Shown here: piece by piece, positions 1-16,647 of the stretch | Layout of the letters: each line of letters opens with the position of its first letter | Position numbering within the stretch: the stretch's first letter is position 1 | From: a virus | Direction: 5' to 3' (one strand) | Length of the DNA stretch: 17,848 nt | UHGV virus genome: UHGV-0189394 | Translations under genes and position numbers: made by a program | The notes under the pieces: generated by a model | Databases searched by the model: none | What the model was told of the DNA's origin: nothing | The model's input: only the letters and a program-made list of their open reading frames with translations

Positions 1-1421
1 AACGTCTTCTGCCCTATATTCCGGTTAATGCGGGGATCCTGATTGTGCCGTGCAGTCGTGGCGGCTCTGCGTTTACCGACGAAGCGCGTCAGATCGGTAC
101 CTACTCAAAAGAGAATGGTGCAACGGCAGAGTCTTCGCGCTGGGGTGTGGGCAATCCACTGTACATGGATTTAATCGACCGCACCAAAGCGGCTCTGGAC
201 AAAAACCCGAAAAACGTCCTGCTGGCCGTGTACTGGATGCAGGGCGAAGGCGACTGTATGAGCACGGGGTATGAGCAACACCCGACAAAATTTGTGGAGA
301 TGGTGAAACAGTTCCGTGCCGATCTTGCGGCCTATGCCGGTCAGTGTCTGGGGGAGGATGCGGCACGCGTACCGTGGGTGTGCGGCGATACCACCTTCTG
401 GTGGAAAACCGTTTACCCGACGCAGTACGCAACGGTTTACGGCACTTACCGTAATAACAGTGAGCTGAATATTCATTTTGTGCCGTTGATGAAAGACGAG
501 AACGGGGCAAATGTACCGACCAACAACCCGACGGAAGATCCGGATGTGCCGGAAGCAAATTATTACGGTGCTGCATCACGCACAGCTGAAAACTGGACGA
601 ACCCGACACGCGCCATGCATTTCAGTTCCTGGGCCCGTCGCGGCATCCTGCCGGACCGTATTGCGTCTGCCATCCTTGTGCACACAGGCCGCAATGCGCC
701 GTTCCTGGCTGGCGGTGATATCTCTGTGGACTTCCCCGAGCCTGAAGTGACGGAAGGCGAACTGACCACGCTGTACAGCGGCGCAGTGAGCGAAGGTGAT
801 TATCAGGCGCAGGGCTGGAATAAAGAACAGGGGAATGCTGAAGTTGTTCTCGACCCTGACAGCCAGTCATGGCATGCCCTGAAACTCACACAGGACAGTT
901 CACCAACAAAAGACCTGAAGATGAGTCACGCTGTGGCAAATGCGCCAGATTTGCTGAAGAACGGTGGTCGCATCACATTGCGTTTCAAAATCGGTGGCGA
1001 ATACGCCAACAAGAAAATCGCTGTTGCGATGTATCTGCAACTGAGTGAAAGCGCTCTTCAGGGGCTGACGTTCCAGGGACAGGCTGAGGGGACACATCCG
1101 TTCCTGGCTGCCTTCTTCCTTCAGACCGATGAGCAGAAAAAACTCAATCTTATGCACAGTAGCGGCAGCACGTCGAATAAGGTTGCAGGCTTTGGCGTAA
1201 TGAATAGCGAATGGCATACGCTGGAACTGGTGTATCCGGGACAGGGGAAAAACACGGTTATTCCTTATGTTGATTCTGTGAAAGGGCCGGAAACACAGCT
1301 GACATGGGCTAAATTCACCGGTCAGGAGAACACGCTGATCCTGACGGATGCATCCAGCAATGATACCTATGAAGTGCGTATTGACACGTTGACGGTGGAA
1401 GTTAACAAAGCAGCGGCGTAA
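1..1421 (+). CDS. SASA/SGNH-type carbohydrate esterase-like protein (sialate O-acetylesterase / NanS-like), 5'-partial
   Basis: Frame is open from nt 3 to the window edge (the track ORF at 45 starts on GTG with no upstream in-frame stop); stop TAA 1419-1421. Translation has a VYWMQGEGD block and a later MHFS block resembling conserved SASA esterase motifs, followed by a ~250-aa C-terminal domain. The catalytic Ser block would lie upstream of the window. Confidence 0.5.
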   Translation, partial: RLLPYIPVNAGILIVPCSRGGSAFTDEARQIGTYSKENGATAESSRWGVGNPLYMDLIDRTKAALDKNPKNVLLAVYWMQGEGDCMSTGYEQHPTKFVEMVKQFRADLAAYAGQCLGEDAARVPWVCGDTTFWWKTVYPTQYATVYGTYRNNSELNIHFVPLMKDENGANVPTNNPTEDPDVPEANYYGAASRTAENWTNPTRAMHFSSWARRGILPDRIASAILVHTGRNAPFLAGGDISVDFPEPEVTEGELTTLYSGAVSEGDYQAQGWNKEQGNAEVVLDPDSQSWHALKLTQDSSPTKDLKMSHAVANAPDLLKNGGRITLRFKIGGEYANKKIAVAMYLQLSESALQGLTFQGQAEGTHPFLAAFFLQTDEQKKLNLMHSSGSTSNKVAGFGVMNSEWHTLELVYPGQGKNTVIPYVDSVKGPETQLTWAKFTGQENTLILTDASSNDTYEVRIDTLTVEVNKAAA

Positions 1422-1427
1422 CGCCAT

Positions 1428-1456
1428 AAAAAAACCCTCCGCCATGCGGAGGGGAA
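1428..1456. terminator. A7 tract + perfect 8-bp GC-rich hairpin (ccctccgc-cat-gcggaggg); intrinsic-terminator-like, best oriented for the - strand
   Basis: Seen directly: aaaaaaa (1428-1434) then stem 1435-1442 / 1446-1453 with a 3-nt loop. On the - strand the hairpin is followed by U7; on the + strand it sits 14 nt after the esterase stop but lacks a U tract. Confidence 0.5.
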
Positions 1457-1537
1457 GAAGTTAACCATCAAACGAATATCTATGGAATTTGCATTCTGGC
1501 AATTTTCACCAATACACACAATGCAAAGGAGCGATGT

Positions 1538-1705
1538 ATGAATTTATTTCAACAGGTGATGTTGTATTTCAGTACTGCGGTATGCGTCCTCTGGTTGTTA
1601 TCCGGTGGCTACAAAGCCGTTAAAAACTTCTGGAACAAAAAACCAGACGAGGCCGCCGCCAGAAAGTCAGCATCAGGTTCAGGTGAAAGCAACTCGTTAA
1701 ACTGA
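1538..1705 (+). CDS. small hypothetical membrane protein (55 aa)
   Basis: ATG 1538 with AGGAG at 1526-1530 (7-nt spacing), stop TGA 1703-1705. Product MNLFQQVMLYFSTAVCVLWLLSGGYKAVKNFWNKKPDEAAARKSASGSGESNSLN has one N-terminal hydrophobic helix and a charged tail. Absent from the supplied track, presumably below its length cutoff. Confidence 0.4.
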   Translation: MNLFQQVMLYFSTAVCVLWLLSGGYKAVKNFWNKKPDEAAARKSASGSGESNSLN

Positions 1706-1783
1706 CGGTGATACCAGGACAAACCAGAATGACCGGCATCTCATCAGGCCGGTCACAGTAACAAGACGAAAAACGGTGACCTC

Positions 1784-2254
1784 ATGCTGAAACTGAATTC
1801 ATTCCGCGATGCGTTAACAGCACATTGCCGGTGGTGTAAAGCCAGTCCGGAAAAATTCACGGTATTCATTGAATCCGGCGGCATTGAAACCACCGGAGAA
1901 TCCCCCTCATTCCTGTACCGCTACAATCTGGTGTTGTTCGTCATGGACTTCACCGAAAGCATCGACAACATCATGCTGCCGGTCATGGCGTGGCTGTACA
2001 GGAATCAGCCGGATCTTCTTCTCAATCCGGAGAAAAACAAAAGCATCAAATTTTCGACGGCCATCAACGATGATGACAGCGCTGACATTCTTCTGGAAAT
2101 CCCGGTATGGGAGCGCGTGATTGTACGCCGCAACGATGACGGCACGGTGAGCGCGGAGCATATCGGTGAGCCACCGGTAAGCCGGGCACTGGAAGCGTGG
2201 CGCGTGGTGTTTGAAGACATGACCTGGAAAACCGCAGAAGAGGCCGGTGCATGA
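1784..2254 (+). CDS. R: tail completion protein, P2 gpR-like
   Basis: 156-aa ORF directly upstream of the S-like and V genes; size and sequence character (e.g. MLPVMAWLYRNQPDLLLNPE) match my recollection of the P2 gpR family. Stop overlaps the next start (ATGA). Confidence 0.7.
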   Translation: MLKLNSFRDALTAHCRWCKASPEKFTVFIESGGIETTGESPSFLYRYNLVLFVMDFTESIDNIMLPVMAWLYRNQPDLLLNPEKNKSIKFSTAINDDDSADILLEIPVWERVIVRRNDDGTVSAEHIGEPPVSRALEAWRVVFEDMTWKTAEEAGA

Positions 2255-2886
2255 GAGACGTTCACGAACTGGATGCCATCTTTCAGGACATTCTTTCAGG
2301 CCTGTCAGCTGCCGGAATTCAGCGCACGGCAATGAGCGTGGGTAAGGCCATCCGGCAGGTACAGACAAAACGCATCAGAAGCCAGGTATCCCCGGACGGT
2401 CAGCCCTGGGAGAAACGAAAACGCCGGATACTGCGCATACAAAAAGGCGTGAAGTTCATCTGGAAAGACGGACAGGTAAGAAACCTGAAAAACTGGAGCA
2501 CATCCCGGGGACGGTTCGGGCGGAAAATTACCGGCTACGATACCGACGCCGGGGGTATCCGGACGTTTTACAAGGCAGATATCGAAGACTATCTGGAAAT
2601 TAACACGCAGCGCGTCGCAGCAAGAGCATCACGTCGCTCACCCATGTTCGAAAAACTGAGAACACCGCGCTTTCTGAAAATCACCCCCGACCCGAGCGGC
2701 GTCAGTGTCGGTTTTCAGGGGCGGGCCGCGCGCATTGCCAGAGTGCACCAGTTCGGTGAGGTGAGCCTTGTCTCGCCCGGAAACGCCACGAAATACCCCG
2801 TGCGCGAACTGCTGGGCCTGAACGCTAAAGACAAACAGCAAATCACGGAAACTGTGATTGCCGGACTGGGGAAAGCTGCGAAATGA
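2251..2886 (+). CDS. S: virion morphogenesis / tail completion protein, P2 gpS-like (extended, 211 aa)
   Basis: Contains QVSPDGQPWEKRK, VHQFGE and VRELLGLNAKD blocks resembling gpS-family motifs; about 60 aa longer than P2 gpS as I recall it. Translationally coupled to R and V. Confidence 0.7.
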   Translation: MRDVHELDAIFQDILSGLSAAGIQRTAMSVGKAIRQVQTKRIRSQVSPDGQPWEKRKRRILRIQKGVKFIWKDGQVRNLKNWSTSRGRFGRKITGYDTDAGGIRTFYKADIEDYLEINTQRVAARASRRSPMFEKLRTPRFLKITPDPSGVSVGFQGRAARIARVHQFGEVSLVSPGNATKYPVRELLGLNAKDKQQITETVIAGLGKAAK

Positions 2887-3464
2887 ACATTGAGCTTATG
2901 CGATTGCTGGAAAACATTGTGCGGATTGGTGTGGTCACGGAAATCAACACCGACACCTGGGAGGTTCGGGTGCAGAGTGGCGGACTGACCACCAACTGGA
3001 TCAGATGGAACAGCGGACGGGCCGGAAAATTCAGAATCTGGATCCCGCCATCACCGGGTGAGCAGGTGCTTCTCCTTTGCCCCGGTGGCAATCCGGAAAC
3101 CGCCGTCAGCGCGGGCAGTCTGTACAGTAATGACAATCCACCACCGGGCGCACTGGAAAACGAAATGGTCATCACCGCACCGGACGGTGCGGAATTTCGC
3201 TATAACGCACAGGAAGGCGACCTGACGGCAAAAGGTATCAAAACCGCAACCATTACGGCCAGAACCAGCATCACGCTGGACACGCCAAGGGTGGAATGCA
3301 CGCAGCACCTGAAGGCAAAAACATTCGAGCTGACCGAAGGCGGGAAGATGACCGGCAACATCACGCACACCGGCGGAAGCCTGACCTCCAACGGTATCAC
3401 GGTGCACAGCCACGTACACGGCGGAGTCAGAAGCGGCGGAGACACAAGCGGAGGTCCACAGTGA
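2883..3464 (+). CDS. V: baseplate assembly protein V (central spike)
   Basis: 193-aa product with GEQVLLLCPGGNPETAV, TLDTPRVECT and THTGGSLTSNGITVHSHVH blocks closely resembling P2 gpV; position directly before W. Confidence 0.9.
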   Translation: MNIELMRLLENIVRIGVVTEINTDTWEVRVQSGGLTTNWIRWNSGRAGKFRIWIPPSPGEQVLLLCPGGNPETAVSAGSLYSNDNPPPGALENEMVITAPDGAEFRYNAQEGDLTAKGIKTATITARTSITLDTPRVECTQHLKAKTFELTEGGKMTGNITHTGGSLTSNGITVHSHVHGGVRSGGDTSGGPQ

Positions 3465-3829
3465 GCATTGACTACACCGGCATGAATCCGCACGGCACGG
3501 GAACCATTTCAGGGCACGAACACCTGAAGAACGCCATCAGGGACATCATCATGACACCTGTCGGAACACGCGTCATGAGACGGGACTATGGCAGCCTGGT
3601 TCCCGGACTCATCGACAGCCCGATGAATGATGTAACCCGCCTTCAGTGCATGAGTGCAGCCGTAATAGCAATCAGCCGCTGGGAGCCGCGCGTGGCCGTG
3701 AGCGCCGTTGATGTGGCGTGGGATAAGCAGGGGCGGGCCATGCTGTCCCTGAACTGCCTGATTGTAAACACCATGGAAAAACTGGAGTTTTCTGTAGAGA
3801 TGGGAGGAAAGGCAGATGCCGGCCATTGA
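3461..3829 (+). CDS. W: baseplate wedge protein W (gp25-like)
   Basis: Frame is open from GTG 3461, which overlaps the V stop (GTGA); an alternative ATG lies at 3482. Product has the TPVGTRVMRRDYGSL block characteristic of gpW/gp25-like proteins. Confidence 0.8.
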   Translation: MSIDYTGMNPHGTGTISGHEHLKNAIRDIIMTPVGTRVMRRDYGSLVPGLIDSPMNDVTRLQCMSAAVIAISRWEPRVAVSAVDVAWDKQGRAMLSLNCLIVNTMEKLEFSVEMGGKADAGH

Positions 3830-4712
3830 TTTATCTGAACTGCCAAAACCGAACGTTATCGAAACGCTGGATTACGAGGTGATACTGGCAGAAACAAAGG
3901 CATTTATCGTCAGCCTTTACCCGGCAGAGATACAGGAAGCCGTCACTGCCGCAATGATGCTGGAATCGGAACCCCTGAACATCATTGCCCAGAGCATGGC
4001 TTTCCGTGAGCTTATTATCCGTCAGAGAATTAACGACGCTGCGGGTGCCATTCTGCTGAGCCATGCGGTATCCACAGACCTGGATCATGTTGCCGCGAAC
4101 CTGAACACCGCTCGCCTGGTCATCACACCGGCAACAGAGACCAGTGATGCCGTTATGGAGAGCGACACCGCCCTGCGTCTTCGGGCGCAGTCTGCCTTTG
4201 ACGGGCTAAGTGTCGCCGGTCCAACAGGCGCATATGAATATTTTGCCCGAAGCGTCAGTGGCAGCATTGCCGACGTGAGGGCAACAAGCCCATCCCCAGC
4301 CCAGGTCACCGTGGCGGTATTATCCACAGAAGGCGACGGTACCGCTTCCGAAGACCTGATCGAAAAGGTCAGAACCGCACTGAGTGCGGAGGACGTCAGA
4401 CCAGTGGGAGACAGGCTTACCGTAAAGAGCGCTGAAATCATCAGCTATCAGATCGACGCCAGACTCTACTTTTATCCGGGCCCGGAATCCGAGCCCATTC
4501 TGAATGCAGCCAAAAGCAACCTGGAAGCGTGGATCAGAGAGCAGAGAAAAATTGGTCGCGATGTTGCGCTTTCCGCCATCATGGCCGTCCTGCATGTGCA
4601 GGGCGTTCAGCGGGTGGAGCTGGTGAAGCCACAACAGAACATTACCGTGAGCGATACGCAGTCGGCATATTGCACTTCATTCACCGTCAGCACCGGGGGA
4701 ACCAATGAATAA
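3816..4712 (+). CDS. J: baseplate assembly protein J
   Basis: 298-aa ORF, size and position match P2 gpJ (~302 aa); overlaps W by 14 nt and I by 8 nt. Confidence 0.85.
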   Translation: MPAIDLSELPKPNVIETLDYEVILAETKAFIVSLYPAEIQEAVTAAMMLESEPLNIIAQSMAFRELIIRQRINDAAGAILLSHAVSTDLDHVAANLNTARLVITPATETSDAVMESDTALRLRAQSAFDGLSVAGPTGAYEYFARSVSGSIADVRATSPSPAQVTVAVLSTEGDGTASEDLIEKVRTALSAEDVRPVGDRLTVKSAEIISYQIDARLYFYPGPESEPILNAAKSNLEAWIREQRKIGRDVALSAIMAVLHVQGVQRVELVKPQQNITVSDTQSAYCTSFTVSTGGTNE

Positions 4713-5238
4713 AGACACTCTGCTTCCCCCTTCCGCCACAGAATTCATACGCAACGCAGAGCGTGGCAGTGAGCGGTTGATGGCGCTGCCCGTCGGTATT
4801 CGTCATCTCTGGGATCCTGACACATGTCCCGTGCAGTTGCTGCCTTATCTGGCATGGGCGCTGTCGGTTGACCGATGGGATCAAAACTGGCCGGAGGAAA
4901 CCAAACGGCAGGTCATTCGCGATTCATGGGATATTCACCGGCATAAAGGCACCATCAAAGCCATTCGCCGGGTTGTTGAGCCATTTGGTTATGTGATCAG
5001 GGTAACCGAATGGTGGGAAACCAACGAAACACCGGGAACATTCCGGCTGGATATCGGCGTACTGGATATCGGGATCACCGAAGAAATGTACAGGGAAGTT
5101 GAACGCCTGGTAGCCGACGCACGTCCGGTCAGTCGCCATCTGATCGGTCTGAACATCATTCAGGACGTACCGGGTTACATGTACACAGGCGGCATCGCCT
5201 ACGACGGCGACATTATTACTGTTTATCCTTCGGAGTAG
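4705..5238 (+). CDS. I: tail/baseplate protein I
   Basis: 177-aa ORF between J and the tail-fibre gene, matching P2 gpI size (~176 aa) and position. Confidence 0.85.
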
Positions 5239-5242
5239 CGCT

Positions 5243-8164
5243 ATGACCGTAAAATTCAAAACCGTAATCACTAAGGACGGTGCAGCAAAAATCGCCGCAG
5301 CAACCGGCACACCGGGAACAAAAATCAACATCACGCACATGGCCGTTGGCGATGGCGACGGCAACTTACCCACGCCTTCATCATCCCAGAAAGCGCTCAT
5401 TCGTGAGGTATGGCGAGGCACACCAAACAAAGTAAGCCCCAACCCCAAAAACCCTGCTGAACTCATTGCTGAACTGGTGATCCCTCCTGAAGCGGGAGGA
5501 TTCTGGATGCGTGAAATGGGCTTGTTCGATGAGGCGGGAACGCTGATTGCCGTATCCAACATGGCAGAAACCTACAAACCGCTACTGTCTGAAGGTTCCG
5601 GCAGGGCGATGACATGCCGCATGGTCCTCATCATCAGCGATGTGAGTGCCGTAAACATCTCCGTTGACAACACCACCATCATGGCAACACAGGATTACGT
5701 CGATGACAAAATCGCTGAACATGAACAGTCGCGCCGACATCCCGACGCCACACTGACCCAGAAAGGCTTCACCCAACTGGACAGCTCGGTAAACAGTAGC
5801 AGTGAGGCGAAAGCTGCAACACCAAAAGCAGTAAAAACACTGAACGATACAAAGGCCCCGCTGAACAGCCCTAAGCTGACCGGAACACCGACTGCCCCCA
5901 CGGCAGCAAAAGGGGTCAACAACACCCAGATAGCGACAACCGCTTACGTGATGGCAGCAATCGCTAATTTAGTGGACTCATCACCGGACGCCCTGAATAC
6001 GCTGAACGAGCTGGCGCAGGCGCTGGGAGATGACCCAAACTTTTCAGCCACCATGACCAACGCACTGGCGGGAAAACAGCCCCTTGATGCAACGCTGACG
6101 GCGATTGCCGCGCTGACCACGGCAGCCGATAAACTGCCTTACTTCACCGGAAACGACAAGGCGGCACTGGCAACACTGACGGAAGTTGGCCGGGACATCC
6201 TCGGAAAGGCAGCCGTCAGTGACGTCATCGCGTATCTGGGGCTCACGAACACCATCACCCAGGCATCAGGCGCACTTCAGAAAGCGCAGAACGGAAAAGA
6301 CATCCCGGACACCGAAGCGTTCCTGGAGAACGTCGGCGTCACCAGTCAGACGTTCATGAAACATAATGGAGAACTGCCTGAAGAGGCTGACCTGAATACC
6401 TATGGCCCGGTTGCTGCCACTCTGGGCACGTGGGGGAAAGCAACGTCAACCAATGCAACGATCGCTAAAAATTTCCCGGAAGACGGTGCGGTGGGCTTTC
6501 TCGAAGTCTTTACTGGAGGAGCTTTTAACGGAACGCAGCGATACACCTGCCGTAACGGTGGAATTTATATCCGGACCCTGACCGCCAGATGGAACGGAAA
6601 AGATGGCCCATGGAGCGCATGGCGTAACGTTCAGATGACCAGCAGAACCCTGAGTCAGGATATTGATCTTGACACCCTGGGGGGAACCGAACATCTGGGG
6701 GTATGGCGTAACGCAGGCGCAGCCAATGCTTCATTCACCAGAAACTACCCGGAAGAAGGTAGTTATGCCCAGGGCGTTCTTGAGGTTATGGAAGGTGGCA
6801 GCTATTCACGCACCCAGCGGTACACTACAGCCAAAGGGAATATGTACATCCGCAGCCTGGCTGCAACATGGGATGCATCTGCCCCGAAGTGGGGAGAATG
6901 GAATAGCGTCGGACATCAACCTGACGGCGCATGGCACGATGGCGACCTGAACACCATGAAAACGCCGGGTATTTACAGCACGACCAACAAGGCCAAAAAC
7001 GGCCCTATGACGGTTACGGACGGGGATAACCTGACAGGGGTCCTTGAGGTCATAAAACGACTGAGTGGTACCGCCTTTATACAGCGCTATACCACCACAG
7101 GAACGGCGACATTAACACGCGGACGTTCTTTTGAAAGAACCTTCAGCGGTGAAGCCTGGACAGAATGGCGGGAAATCTATAACTCGTTCAGCCTGCCGCA
7201 GAATCTGGGCATCGGTGGCGCAGTGGCAAAACTATCCAGTCTGGACTGGCAGACCTACGACTTTGTGCCGGGCAGTCTGATAACCGTGCGGCTTGATAAC
7301 ATGACCAACATTCCCGACGGTATGGACTGGGGCGTCATTGATGGCAACCTGATAAACATCGCGGTTGGTCCGAGTGATGATTCCGGTACGGGGCGCTCAA
7401 TGCATGTATGGCGCAGCACTGTGAGTAAAGCGAATTACCGCTTTTTTATGGTGCGTATTTCAGGAAATCCGGGAAGCCGCACGATCACAACAAGACGAGT
7501 ACCAATCATTGACGAAGCCCAGACATGGGGCGCGAAACAGACATTCAGTGCTGGCCTTTCAGGTGAATTATCCGGCAACGCCTCCACTGCAACAAAATTA
7601 AAAACCGGGCGTAAGATTAACGGCGTCACGTTTGATGGCACCGCCAATATAGAGGCATTCCCTCCGGGGGTTCCCTTACCATGGCCATCAGACACCCCGC
7701 CTTCAGGCTATGCCATTATGCAGGGGCAAACCTTCGACAAGGCAAAATACCCGAAACTTGCCATCGCCTACCCGTCAGGAAAACTGCCTGATATGCGGGG
7801 ATGGACAATCAAAGGGAAACCAGCCAGCGGTCGGGCGGTATTATCACAGGAGCAGGACGGTATTAAATCGCATACCCATACGGCCAGCGTATCAAATACC
7901 GATCTGGGGTCGAAAACGACCAGTTCATCAGGCTCAGGATCAGGCACCGCATCAGTAATACAGGGGACAGCATCCCCTGAAGGTAGCGGAGACTGGACGG
8001 CGTACGGTCCAGGAAGTGGGTCAACAATTACTGTAACTATGCCCAGTCACACCCACACCGTGGCACTGGGCTCACACGGGCACGGCGTGACCGTTAACGC
8101 CACAGGCAACACAGAAAACACCGTGAAAAATATTGCGTTTAACTACATCGTGAGGCTTGCATAA
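5243..8164 (+). CDS. H: tail fibre protein (mosaic: P2 gpH-like N-terminus, repeat-containing shaft, lambda Stf / Mu S-like receptor-binding tip)
   Basis: 973-aa ORF with GGAG 8 nt upstream. N-terminal ~150 aa is P2 H-like; C-terminus has GWTIKGK...HTHTA...[16 protein letters not shown]...[12 protein letters not shown], resembling the conserved tip of lambda Stf-type side tail fibres. Confidence 0.9.
6388..7183 (+). repeat. three tandem protein-level repeats (~85-90 aa each) inside the tail-fibre gene
   Basis: Units begin near nt 6388 (DLNTYGP...[29 protein letters not shown]...W..W), 6659 (DIDLDTLGG...[29 protein letters not shown]...W..W) and 6939 ([11 protein letters not shown]...GVLEVIKRL...QRYTTTG...W..W). 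Nucleotide sequences have diverged; unit boundaries are approximate. Confidence 0.6.
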
Positions 8165-8910
8165 TGACCTTTACAATGAAAGACGAAGCCAGAACGCTAC
8201 GGGTATTTCATATTCACCCGGAAACCAGCGAACTGACCGGCGAAAGCGACGTATATATTCCACCGCATACCGGGCTGCCCGCTGGTTGCACAACTACCGA
8301 ACCGCCACATATCCCGGAAGGGTTCGCGGCACTTTTTGATGAGGTTCGCCAGCGCTGGGAACTCGCCGAAGATCACCGGGGGAAAGTGGTGTGGGAGACA
8401 ACATCCGGGAATGAAATCACAATAACTGAAATCGGACCGCTGCCTGAAAACACAACAACCGTGGCCCCGCCAACAGCCGCAGGAAAGTTTATTGATGGCG
8501 AATGGAAAGAAGATCGCAGTCTGGCAATCAGTATAAAAAATAACGAGATAAACGAATGGCGTAACGCCATGGAATCTGCAAATTACGTTTTCACGTTCAA
8601 TGGCCGCAACTGGGATTACGGAAAAGAAACCCAGTCCCGACTGGAACCATCAGTGGCAGCCGCAAAGTCCGGGTTATTACCGGAGGGATTTTTCTGGACG
8701 GATGCCGATAACAACGATATCCCGGTTACCGCAGATGAATTGATCGCACTGAGCAATGCTGCATCTGCTGCAATGTTTACCAAAGGAATGGAAATACATA
8801 TCCGGCAACGGGAAATGAAAAAAGCCATAGAGGAATTACAGGACCCCGGAGAAATCATGGCATACCCGGTGGGATGGAAAACAGACACCGCAGAAGGTGA
8901 CGACGAGTGA
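8164..8910 (+). CDS. tfa: tail fibre assembly protein / chaperone (lambda Tfa-like N-terminal domain, non-canonical C-terminal domain)
   Basis: Start overlaps the H stop (TAATGA). N-terminal ~100 aa (GESDVYIPPHTGLPAG, EDHRGKVVWETTSGNEITITEIGPLPEN) closely resembles lambda Tfa; the C-terminal ~140 aa does not resemble the usual Tfa C-terminus as I recall it. Confidence 0.75.
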   Translation: MTFTMKDEARTLRVFHIHPETSELTGESDVYIPPHTGLPAGCTTTEPPHIPEGFAALFDEVRQRWELAEDHRGKVVWETTSGNEITITEIGPLPENTTTVAPPTAAGKFIDGEWKEDRSLAISIKNNEINEWRNAMESANYVFTFNGRNWDYGKETQSRLEPSVAAAKSGLLPEGFFWTDADNNDIPVTADELIALSNAASAAMFTKGMEIHIRQREMKKAIEELQDPGEIMAYPVGWKTDTAEGDDE

Positions 8911-8915
8911 AAGTT

Positions 8916-8942
8916 AAAACGCCCGACTGACGGGCGTTTTTA
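8916..8942. terminator. bidirectional rho-independent terminator between convergent tfa and U
   Basis: aaaa-ACGCCCG-actga-CGGGCGT-ttttt: GC-rich 7-bp stem flanked by an A tract on one side and a T tract on the other, lying between the tfa stop (8910) and the U stop (8943). Confidence 0.8.
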
Positions 8943-16523: not shown

Positions 16524-16616
16524 GGAAACCGCGACGGGGGAGTAATCCCCCGTCAATCGGTTGCCAGGGTAAAGCCGAAAGTAGCACCCTCACACGCAAG
16601 TCACAAAGAAAAACAA

Positions 16617-16647
16617 AGCCCGCAGCGTAAAAACTGCGGGCTTTTTT
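16617..16647 (+). terminator. rho-independent terminator
   Basis: AGCCCGCAG-cgtaaaaa-CTGCGGGCT followed by TTTTTT, ~95 nt downstream of the hok-like ORF. Confidence 0.75.

Follow-up and report, generated by a model that had tools for sequence, protein, structure and literature searches.

The closest described systems are PasA and PasC of the EPEC strain E2348/69, which are Hfq-associated, Northern-validated small RNAs lying in a '> < >' orientation by the esterase genes E2348C_0688 and E2348C_1246 (PMC8550237). Both are transcribed from the minus strand, PasA from 743499 to 743415 (85 nt, with a minor 236-nt form which ends at 743264) and PasC from 1290909 to 1290832 (79 nt) (PMC8550237, Table S6). 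EcOnc51 and EcOnc52 are the EHEC homologues of this pair (Pearl Mizrahi et al., 2021, PMC8550237), and the RNAs encoded at the equivalent position are abundant among Hfq partners and have numerous targets by RIL-seq (PMC8550237). PasA and PasC adjoin sialic-acid esterase and holin/lysozyme genes, and a poly-U tract accompanies the 3' stem-loop of all Pas RNAs (Zhu, Shabalina & Storz, 2026, bioRxiv 10.64898/2026.05.13.724894). Convergent short small RNAs at the moron sites of lambdoid prophages had been noted earlier, and in AgvB and AsxR the 3' part with the terminator was described as conserved and the 5' part as variable (Tree et al., 2014, PMC4104026). With PasA, PasC and EcOnc51/52 a convergent prophage small-RNA gene of the kind that we propose here is already known.

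On inspection of these loci the PasC terminator (AAAAAAA GCCAGCG...) was found to abut the stop codon of the esterase gene. In EHEC Sakai the stop codon of the esterase ECs_1088, at 1182008, is overlapped by the Hfq-CRAC peak of EcOnc52 (1181998-1182075, minus strand), for which a Rho-independent terminator is predicted. Prophage PP2 of E2348/69 (locus L016, 2466-2700) carries two tandem reverse small-RNA units behind the esterase. PasA is the second of these; the first is EcOnc52-like and has as its terminator the 3' end of the "minor" PasA form. Just ahead of the PP2 holin gene there is a terminator for rightward transcription, GCCGTCAGTG...CACTGGCGGCTTTTTT. An antisense RNA of a different location is the lambda OOP RNA, a 77-nt RNA from between cII and O which has its own promoter and intrinsic terminator and is transcribed in the direction opposite to the surrounding rightward operon. 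It overlaps cII at the 3' end of the coding sequence and acts in cis through RNase III.

The window analysed in this work, a stretch of 17,848 nt deposited as UHGV-0189394, is an E. coli P2-like prophage inserted beside flk, with a host flank that recurs at 99% identity or above in 3005 E. coli records. Its genes are arranged as follows.

45-1421, plus strand: 3' part of a sialate O-acetylesterase gene (SASA + DUF6645, NanS-p-like; PF03629, PF20350), cut by the window start
1538-1705, plus strand: DUF1378 gene (PF07125, E 2e-17) for a small membrane protein of 55 aa that has one hydrophobic helix
1784-8910, plus strand: gpR, S, V, W, J, I, H and the tail-fibre assembly protein
14622 to 8943, minus strand: FI, FII, E, T and U, ending at a bidirectional terminator (8916-8940)
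after 14764, plus strand: gpD and Ogr

The full-length esterase gene (647 aa) is present in the 99.9% identical locus L108; there, and in its relatives, the cassette is placed between the lysis genes (lysozyme, lysB/lysC) and gpR. The hairpin under study lies in the gap between two genes which are both rightward, as the original prediction had it: the esterase/DUF6645 ORF ends at 1421 and the DUF1378 ORF occupies 1538-1705, 84 nt beyond the hairpin. On the far side of the hairpin, upstream in the leftward sense, there is no minus-strand gene: all genes from 1538 to 8910 are on the plus strand and the nearest minus-strand operon has a terminator of its own, so that any leftward transcript stopped at the hairpin starts locally. 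Two minus-strand ORFs, 900..1445 and 1367..1519, were considered as terminated genes and rejected, since they start in or run through the terminator. Elsewhere in the window, the bidirectional terminator at 8916-8940, AAAACGCCCG...CGGGCGTTTT, marks the meeting point of the convergent R-to-G block and the minus-strand FI/FII/E/T/U block, a placement of these five genes opposite the R-to-G block which we take to differ from that of P2. The gap from the DUF1378 stop to the gpR start contains a second perfect 8-bp hairpin at 1737-1762 (TGACCGGC, loop atctcatcag, GCCGGTCA), which is flanked by neither an A-run nor a T-run; L103-L108 carry the identical hairpin and L001 lacks it. Near the prophage-host boundary by flk there are a minus-strand terminator (16555..16532) and a bidirectional terminator (16615-16644), both strong, and in other E. 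coli strains the interval 16532-16644 holds methyltransferase, Com and Hok/Gef genes.

The elements of the proposed unit, all on the minus strand, are listed here from its 3' end.

1428-1434, minus strand: U7 tail (A7 on the plus strand), predicted 3' end of the small RNA
1435-1453, minus strand: terminator hairpin, 5' arm CCCUCCGC (1453..1446), loop AUG (1445..1443), 3' arm GCGGAGGG (1442..1435)
1448-1460, minus strand: 13-nt run of C and U only, CUUCUUCCCCUCC, single-stranded until the terminator and then continuing into its 5' arm
1465-1485, minus strand: predicted 5' stem-loop (minimum-free-energy fold), in the long form of about 60 nt only
1468-1428, minus strand: predicted short form of the RNA, 41 nt, from P-a
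1428-1487, minus strand: predicted small-RNA transcript, long form, from promoter positions and terminator
1475-1502, minus strand: candidate promoter P-a, TTGCCA (1502..1497), 16-nt spacer, GATATT (1480..1475), top 0.006% by PWM, predicted +1 at A1468, giving a 41-nt RNA
1493-1498, minus strand: -10 of candidate promoter P-b, CAGAAT, predicted +1 at about 1483-1488, giving an RNA of about 60 nt
1516-1521, minus strand: -35 of P-b, TTGTGT, 17-nt spacer, P-b score within the top 0.08% of window sites by PWM

Read along the plus strand, the site consists of A7 (1428-1434), which begins 7 nt past the esterase stop codon (1419-1421), the stem CCCTCCGC (1435-1442), the loop CAT (1443-1445) and the stem GCGGAGGG (1446-1453). 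The flank which follows, GAAGAAGTTAAC, begins GAAGAAG directly after the stem and has two T in 12 bases and no T-run; the sequence therefore bears out the statement of the original prediction that an A7 tract precedes the hairpin and no T tract follows it. The same prediction spoke of a perfect GC hairpin, and the pairing is indeed perfect over 8 bp around a loop of 3 nt, although the pairs are seven G-C and one T-A. The hairpin has an energy of -15.8 kcal/mol in the minus-strand RNA and of -16.4 kcal/mol when the same stem is taken as plus-strand RNA. On the minus strand the U7 abuts the stem directly, so that both the stem and the U-run of a Rho-independent terminator are present, and the terminator scan reported the site on this strand only, as CCCTCCGCATGGCGGAGGG followed by the tail TTTTTTTATG. 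A bidirectional intrinsic terminator would have a T-run on both strands and the plus-strand flank has none, which upholds the view that the terminator geometry exists for leftward transcription only.

A strict definition (8 perfect pairs, at least six of them G-C, a loop of 3-8 nt and at least six T in the next seven bases) selected just two sites in the 17.8-kb window, the 1428-1453 hairpin and the bidirectional terminator at 16618-16641. Shuffling of the sequence with its dinucleotide content preserved gave, over 500 replicates, a mean of 0.002 such sites per window, which argues that the hairpin is real and not a product of chance. The bidirectional terminators at 8916-8940 and 16615-16644 share with it a G+C-rich hairpin flanked by an A-run, but they have a T-run on both sides and are placed between convergent genes, whereas the 1428 site has no plus-strand T-run and is placed between co-directional genes. 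At the least, the hairpin is very likely to be a functional terminator of leftward transcription.

Alignment of the junction among related prophages, which had been suggested as a check on the original prediction, confirmed this layout. About 100 DUF1378-encoding loci were collected from E. coli genomes, phage records, IMG/VR and NCBI assemblies, and these contained 52 distinct upstream sequences. In 48 of them the esterase stop codon was followed first by an A5-A9 run and next by a hairpin, and the hairpin by no T-run. As for the four exceptions, L051 and L067 merely have an interrupted A-run by our own reading of the sequences, L019 (Rosenbergiella) has no esterase upstream, and the L002 type carries the same kind of hairpin behind DUF1378 and not before it. 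Across the junctions there are 17 distinct stems, among them CCCTCCGC, GCCCCTCC, CCGCCAGCG, CCCGCCAGTCA and GCCAGCGCC; all are fully paired, and two to four pair types occur at each of the first seven positions. The retention of the layout while the stems change indicates that selection maintains a hairpin with a 5' A-run and without a 3' T-run, and this combination is what a terminator acting on leftward transcription only requires. Within the CCCTCC type, the stem class to which the window belongs, no covariation was found because the core of the stem is invariant, and the support for the structure comes from the comparison across types.

The CCCTCC type was found in 11 P2-like prophage loci and in the lambdoid loci L003 and L059, where genes for DUF826 and holin follow, and the cassette must therefore have moved between both types of phage. 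The sequence type of the window itself is rare, with 3 of 5426 complete E. coli genomes matching across the hairpin, and it is absent from the strains studied. Searches of the phage collection with the region, by megablast and blastn, gave no match. A DUF1378 alignment searched against genome contigs gave only four loci (Cedecea, Rosenbergiella), none with an esterase, while the esterase C-terminus found one locus among the viral contigs. The pattern AAAANNCCCTCC..GGAGGG..ATTCTG had 20 hits in the viral contigs, of which three were true relatives, already known, and the others unrelated terminators. In Cedecea neteri (L018, approximately 3165-3225) a DUF1378 homologue without an upstream esterase is directly followed by an A-rich run and the hairpin GCCCTGTC...GACAGGGC, which has no T-run and is a further leftward-only terminator beside DUF1378, outside Escherichia. 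The L002 type (E. coli G1/2 and 13 other complete genomes) carries the whole promoter-body-terminator unit at 4215-4345, after DUF1378 and just before gpR. The esterase-to-DUF1378 gap of this lineage holds a different hairpin, GCTTCCC...GGGAAGC, with no A-run.

Where a leftward transcript could start was addressed in two ways. The promoter scan of the terminator tool found only four promoter-like sites in the whole window, and P-a, which is aimed at the hairpin, is among them. A PWM scan with our own approximate sigma-70 frequencies was applied to minus-strand sites at 1460-1800, which were ranked against all sites of the window; the two best were P-a and P-b, with the hairpin 21-40 nt downstream, and for P-b a +1 at about 1486 was predicted. 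Both candidates are situated in the 5' leader of the DUF1378 gene. These two candidates imply different 5' ends of the RNA. P-b has a -35 hexamer which matches the consensus at just three of six positions, but its TTG, the 17-nt spacing and CAnAAT are invariant in all seven aligned units of the CCCTCC type (alignment A2), including the relocated L002b. Furthermore, its CAGAAT corresponds in position to the CAGAAA of the PasA and PasC promoter (TTGACA, 18 nt, CAGAAA), which precedes the RNA-seq 5' end of both RNAs by 5 nt. On account of this invariance and of the counterpart in PasA and PasC we regard P-b as the conserved candidate promoter. The -35 of P-b is only 3 nt from the DUF1378 Shine-Dalgarno sequence on the opposite strand, and the overlap of the conserved -35 region with the DUF1378 leader could in itself account for part of the conservation. 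P-a is a candidate for an additional strong promoter in the allele carried by the window: its -10 is common to L001, and the site is weaker or absent in L003 and L002b.

In the long form the predicted RNA folds into a 5' stem-loop, a single-stranded stretch which ends in the C/U run, the terminator and U7. All five variants of the CCCTCC type have this order of 5' stem-loop, C/U run of 11-15 nt, terminator and U6-8 despite their diverged bodies; the small 5' hairpin occurs in the other variants too, without conservation of its sequence. The ORF list of the window contains no ORF within the predicted RNA that closes before the terminator. In the Hfq-binding module of enterobacterial small RNAs, reportedly described by Otaka et al. 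in 2011 and Ishikawa et al. in 2012, a U-rich stretch leads into a G+C-rich terminator that carries a long U tail. The C/U run CUUCUUCCCCUCC is a candidate for the seed or for a contact with Hfq. A search of the translation-initiation regions of the window for targets of the RNA produced none that stands out. An imperfect direct repeat, GG(T)GGAAGTTAAC at 1394-1406 and GGAAGAAGTTAACC at 1453-1466, would allow the RNA to pair with the last esterase codons (1394-1406) at -16.3 kcal/mol, and this recalls PasA, which has a RIL-seq contact with the 3' end of its own esterase. We rejected this pairing as evidence for a target because 5 of 117 background windows match or beat the same energy.

When compared with the systems described above, the window unit resembles PasA, PasC and EcOnc52 in that it directly follows a prophage sialate O-acetylesterase gene and converges on it, between two rightward genes. 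It shares with PasA and PasC an intrinsic terminator with a U6-8 tail at the esterase stop and a TTGACA-like -35, a spacer of 17-18 nt and CAGAA(A/T), and the sizes are similar (71-85 nt in the PasA/PasC group, 41-60 nt predicted here). It differs in that its stem is of the CCCTCC type and not of the GCCAGC type, in that the prophage is P2-like and not lambdoid, and in that the RNA is predicted here from sequence. An nhmmer profile of PasA, PasC, EcOnc52 and the unit of the minor PasA form did not match the window at E up to 10, nor did the reciprocal CCCTCC-type profile match the Pas loci; a covariance model of the Pas RNAs (R1), run with filters off, had no hit at 1428-1487, again at E up to 10. 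Given this lack of similarity in sequence and structure, the link to the proven small RNAs is one of position and architecture only, and the window element cannot be filed as a member of their family by sequence, although by analogy it would fit their niche and their manner of working. PasA and PasC have no entry in Rfam 15. Rfam cmscan over 1000-2200 at E up to 10 did not list AgvB (RF02702) or AsxR (RF02703) and gave around the site only sub-threshold, terminator-driven matches such as OmrA-B (E 0.19); at the Rfam gathering score nothing was found in the window or in the related P2-like loci. AgvB and AsxR are nonetheless similar in being very short (51-60 nt) prophage small RNAs at moron sites and convergent to the late operon, and their conserved 3' and variable 5' parts resemble the conserved terminator core and swapped body of the window unit; they differ in position, which is between the Q/PR' region or stx and the esterase gene. 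Unlike OOP, the RNA predicted here ends 7 nt short of the esterase stop codon and overlaps intergenic mRNA only.

Taken together, these features lead us to a reading to which we assign a probability of roughly two in three, namely that the hairpin is the Rho-independent terminator of a tiny leftward non-coding RNA gene between the esterase and DUF1378 genes; the original prediction would then have overlooked that the hairpin forms the 3' end of a compact convergent small-RNA gene. One or more dedicated sigma-70-type promoters at 1475-1521 would drive leftward transcription of an RNA of approximately 41-60 nt from a gene nested in the moron cassette (rightward esterase and DUF1378) of a P2-like prophage. 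The one-way terminator would end the small RNA 7 nt before the esterase stop codon is reached, and rightward transcription of the late operon would read through it to DUF1378 and to the essential tail genes R and S. To our knowledge P2-like phages have no Q-type antitermination, and a strict one-way design would be sensible in such a phage because a bidirectional terminator at this place would cut off R and S. We infer transcription of the window unit, and the position of its 5' end, from the candidate promoters and the conserved layout. By analogy with PasA, PasC and EcOnc52, which occupy this position in lambdoid prophages, we further infer that the RNA is made in the lysogen, that it binds Hfq via the hairpin and the U7 tail and that it acts by base pairing, probably through the C/U-rich stretch beside the terminator.

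The history of the unit bears on what the RNA may do. L103 and L104 share 98.8% identity over 8.47 kb, and on each side of the unit they match at 100% over several hundred bases, and yet at 3626-3710 their identity drops to 46-64%, solely from the terminator stem to the -10 hexamer. This pattern indicates that one allele has replaced another, the breakpoints being in the terminator stem and at the -10 hexamer. There was accordingly some truth in the suggestion that the hairpin marks a module junction, since mosaic breakpoints are located at the terminator and also at the promoter. In L059 the RNA body of the window is joined to a promoter side of the L003 type. As judged from these alignments, the transcribed segment appears to be an exchangeable unit with fixed ends. 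A more far-reaching proposal, which we consider doubtful, is that of a swappable small-RNA cassette with a fixed promoter and terminator core, the body of which is exchanged between near-identical prophages and between lambdoid and P2-like ones under selection for new targets; the C/U-rich, anti-Shine-Dalgarno-like CUUCUUCCCCUCC would silence mRNAs of the host or of rival phages or sponge host small RNAs, and the CCCTCC type would be a distinct undescribed family of prophage riboregulators whose spread now extends to P2-like phages.

The free divergence of bodies between near-identical prophages could also mean a lack of constraint, as would be expected if the leftward terminator were a pure insulator. 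Its sole role would be to keep antisense transcription, whether spurious or leaking from a promoter, out of the esterase and lysis genes, and the short RNA would have no function. The geometry of the terminator and its position right at the esterase stop fit such a role, as does a target search that returned no target. The original prediction had indeed proposed that the hairpin stops antisense transcription from entering the esterase gene, which is right as far as it goes but misses where the leftward transcription comes from. The promoter hexamers are kept in all variants, whereas for an unwanted transcript the loss of the promoter would be the simpler outcome, and in L002 promoter, body and terminator move as one piece. 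The C/U run and the long U tail are moreover retained in every diverged body, and the RNAs found at equivalent positions are abundant Hfq partners with many RIL-seq targets. We therefore think it improbable that insulation is the whole function of the site.

The proximity of DUF1378 raises the question of whether the leftward RNA is a cis-acting antisense regulator of this gene in the manner of a type I toxin-antitoxin system, for which the pairing of IstR-1 with the tisB mRNA leader is a model. The 55-aa product with its one hydrophobic helix would suit this role, any transcribed leader of the gene would be perfectly complementary to the RNA at 50-110 nt ahead of the DUF1378 start, and unit and gene are adjacent in most loci. 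An obligate pairing with a toxin is contradicted, however, by the retention of the unit with a truncated DUF1378 in L001 and without DUF1378 at the PasA and PasC loci, and in L002 the unit is downstream of the gene; DUF1378 is, moreover, at most a putative toxin. Regulation of this kind is thus unlikely.

No more can be said for a function of the hairpin in the plus-strand RNA, where it would protect or process a 3' end in the polycistronic late mRNA and so stabilise the esterase message or uncouple DUF1378 and the tail genes. The stem forms in plus-strand RNA (-16.4 kcal/mol), lies in an intercistronic gap 13 nt after the stop codon and, having no U-run, would not terminate rightward transcription. 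Such a function does not predict the A5-9 run 5' of the stem together with the missing 3' T-run in 48 of 52 junctions, nor does it predict a conserved minus-strand promoter and minus-strand transcripts at equivalent sites, and we consider it a little less probable again. That the hairpin is a chance structure or a relic with no current function, which might be argued from the transcription of this exact sequence being so far predicted only, is highly improbable in view of the shuffle expectation of 0.002 per window and of a layout conserved with 17 different, fully paired stems.

The small-RNA gene thus remains our preferred reading of the site. The CCCTCC-type sequence class and its occurrence in a P2-like prophage are, within the libraries searched, undescribed, and a unit of this type is beyond the reach of BLAST with PasA or PasC. 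If transcribed, it would add a sequence-distinct class to the prophage small RNAs beside NanS-p-type esterase genes, and the esterase/small-RNA/DUF1378 cassette would have passed from lambdoid phages, including those of the Stx type, into P2-like prophages and would therefore not be confined to lambdoid phages. For annotation the locus suggests a rule, which is that a strong terminator which is preceded by an A-run, is not followed by a T-run and opposes the shared direction of the two phage genes beside it may be the mark of an unannotated convergent small-RNA gene.
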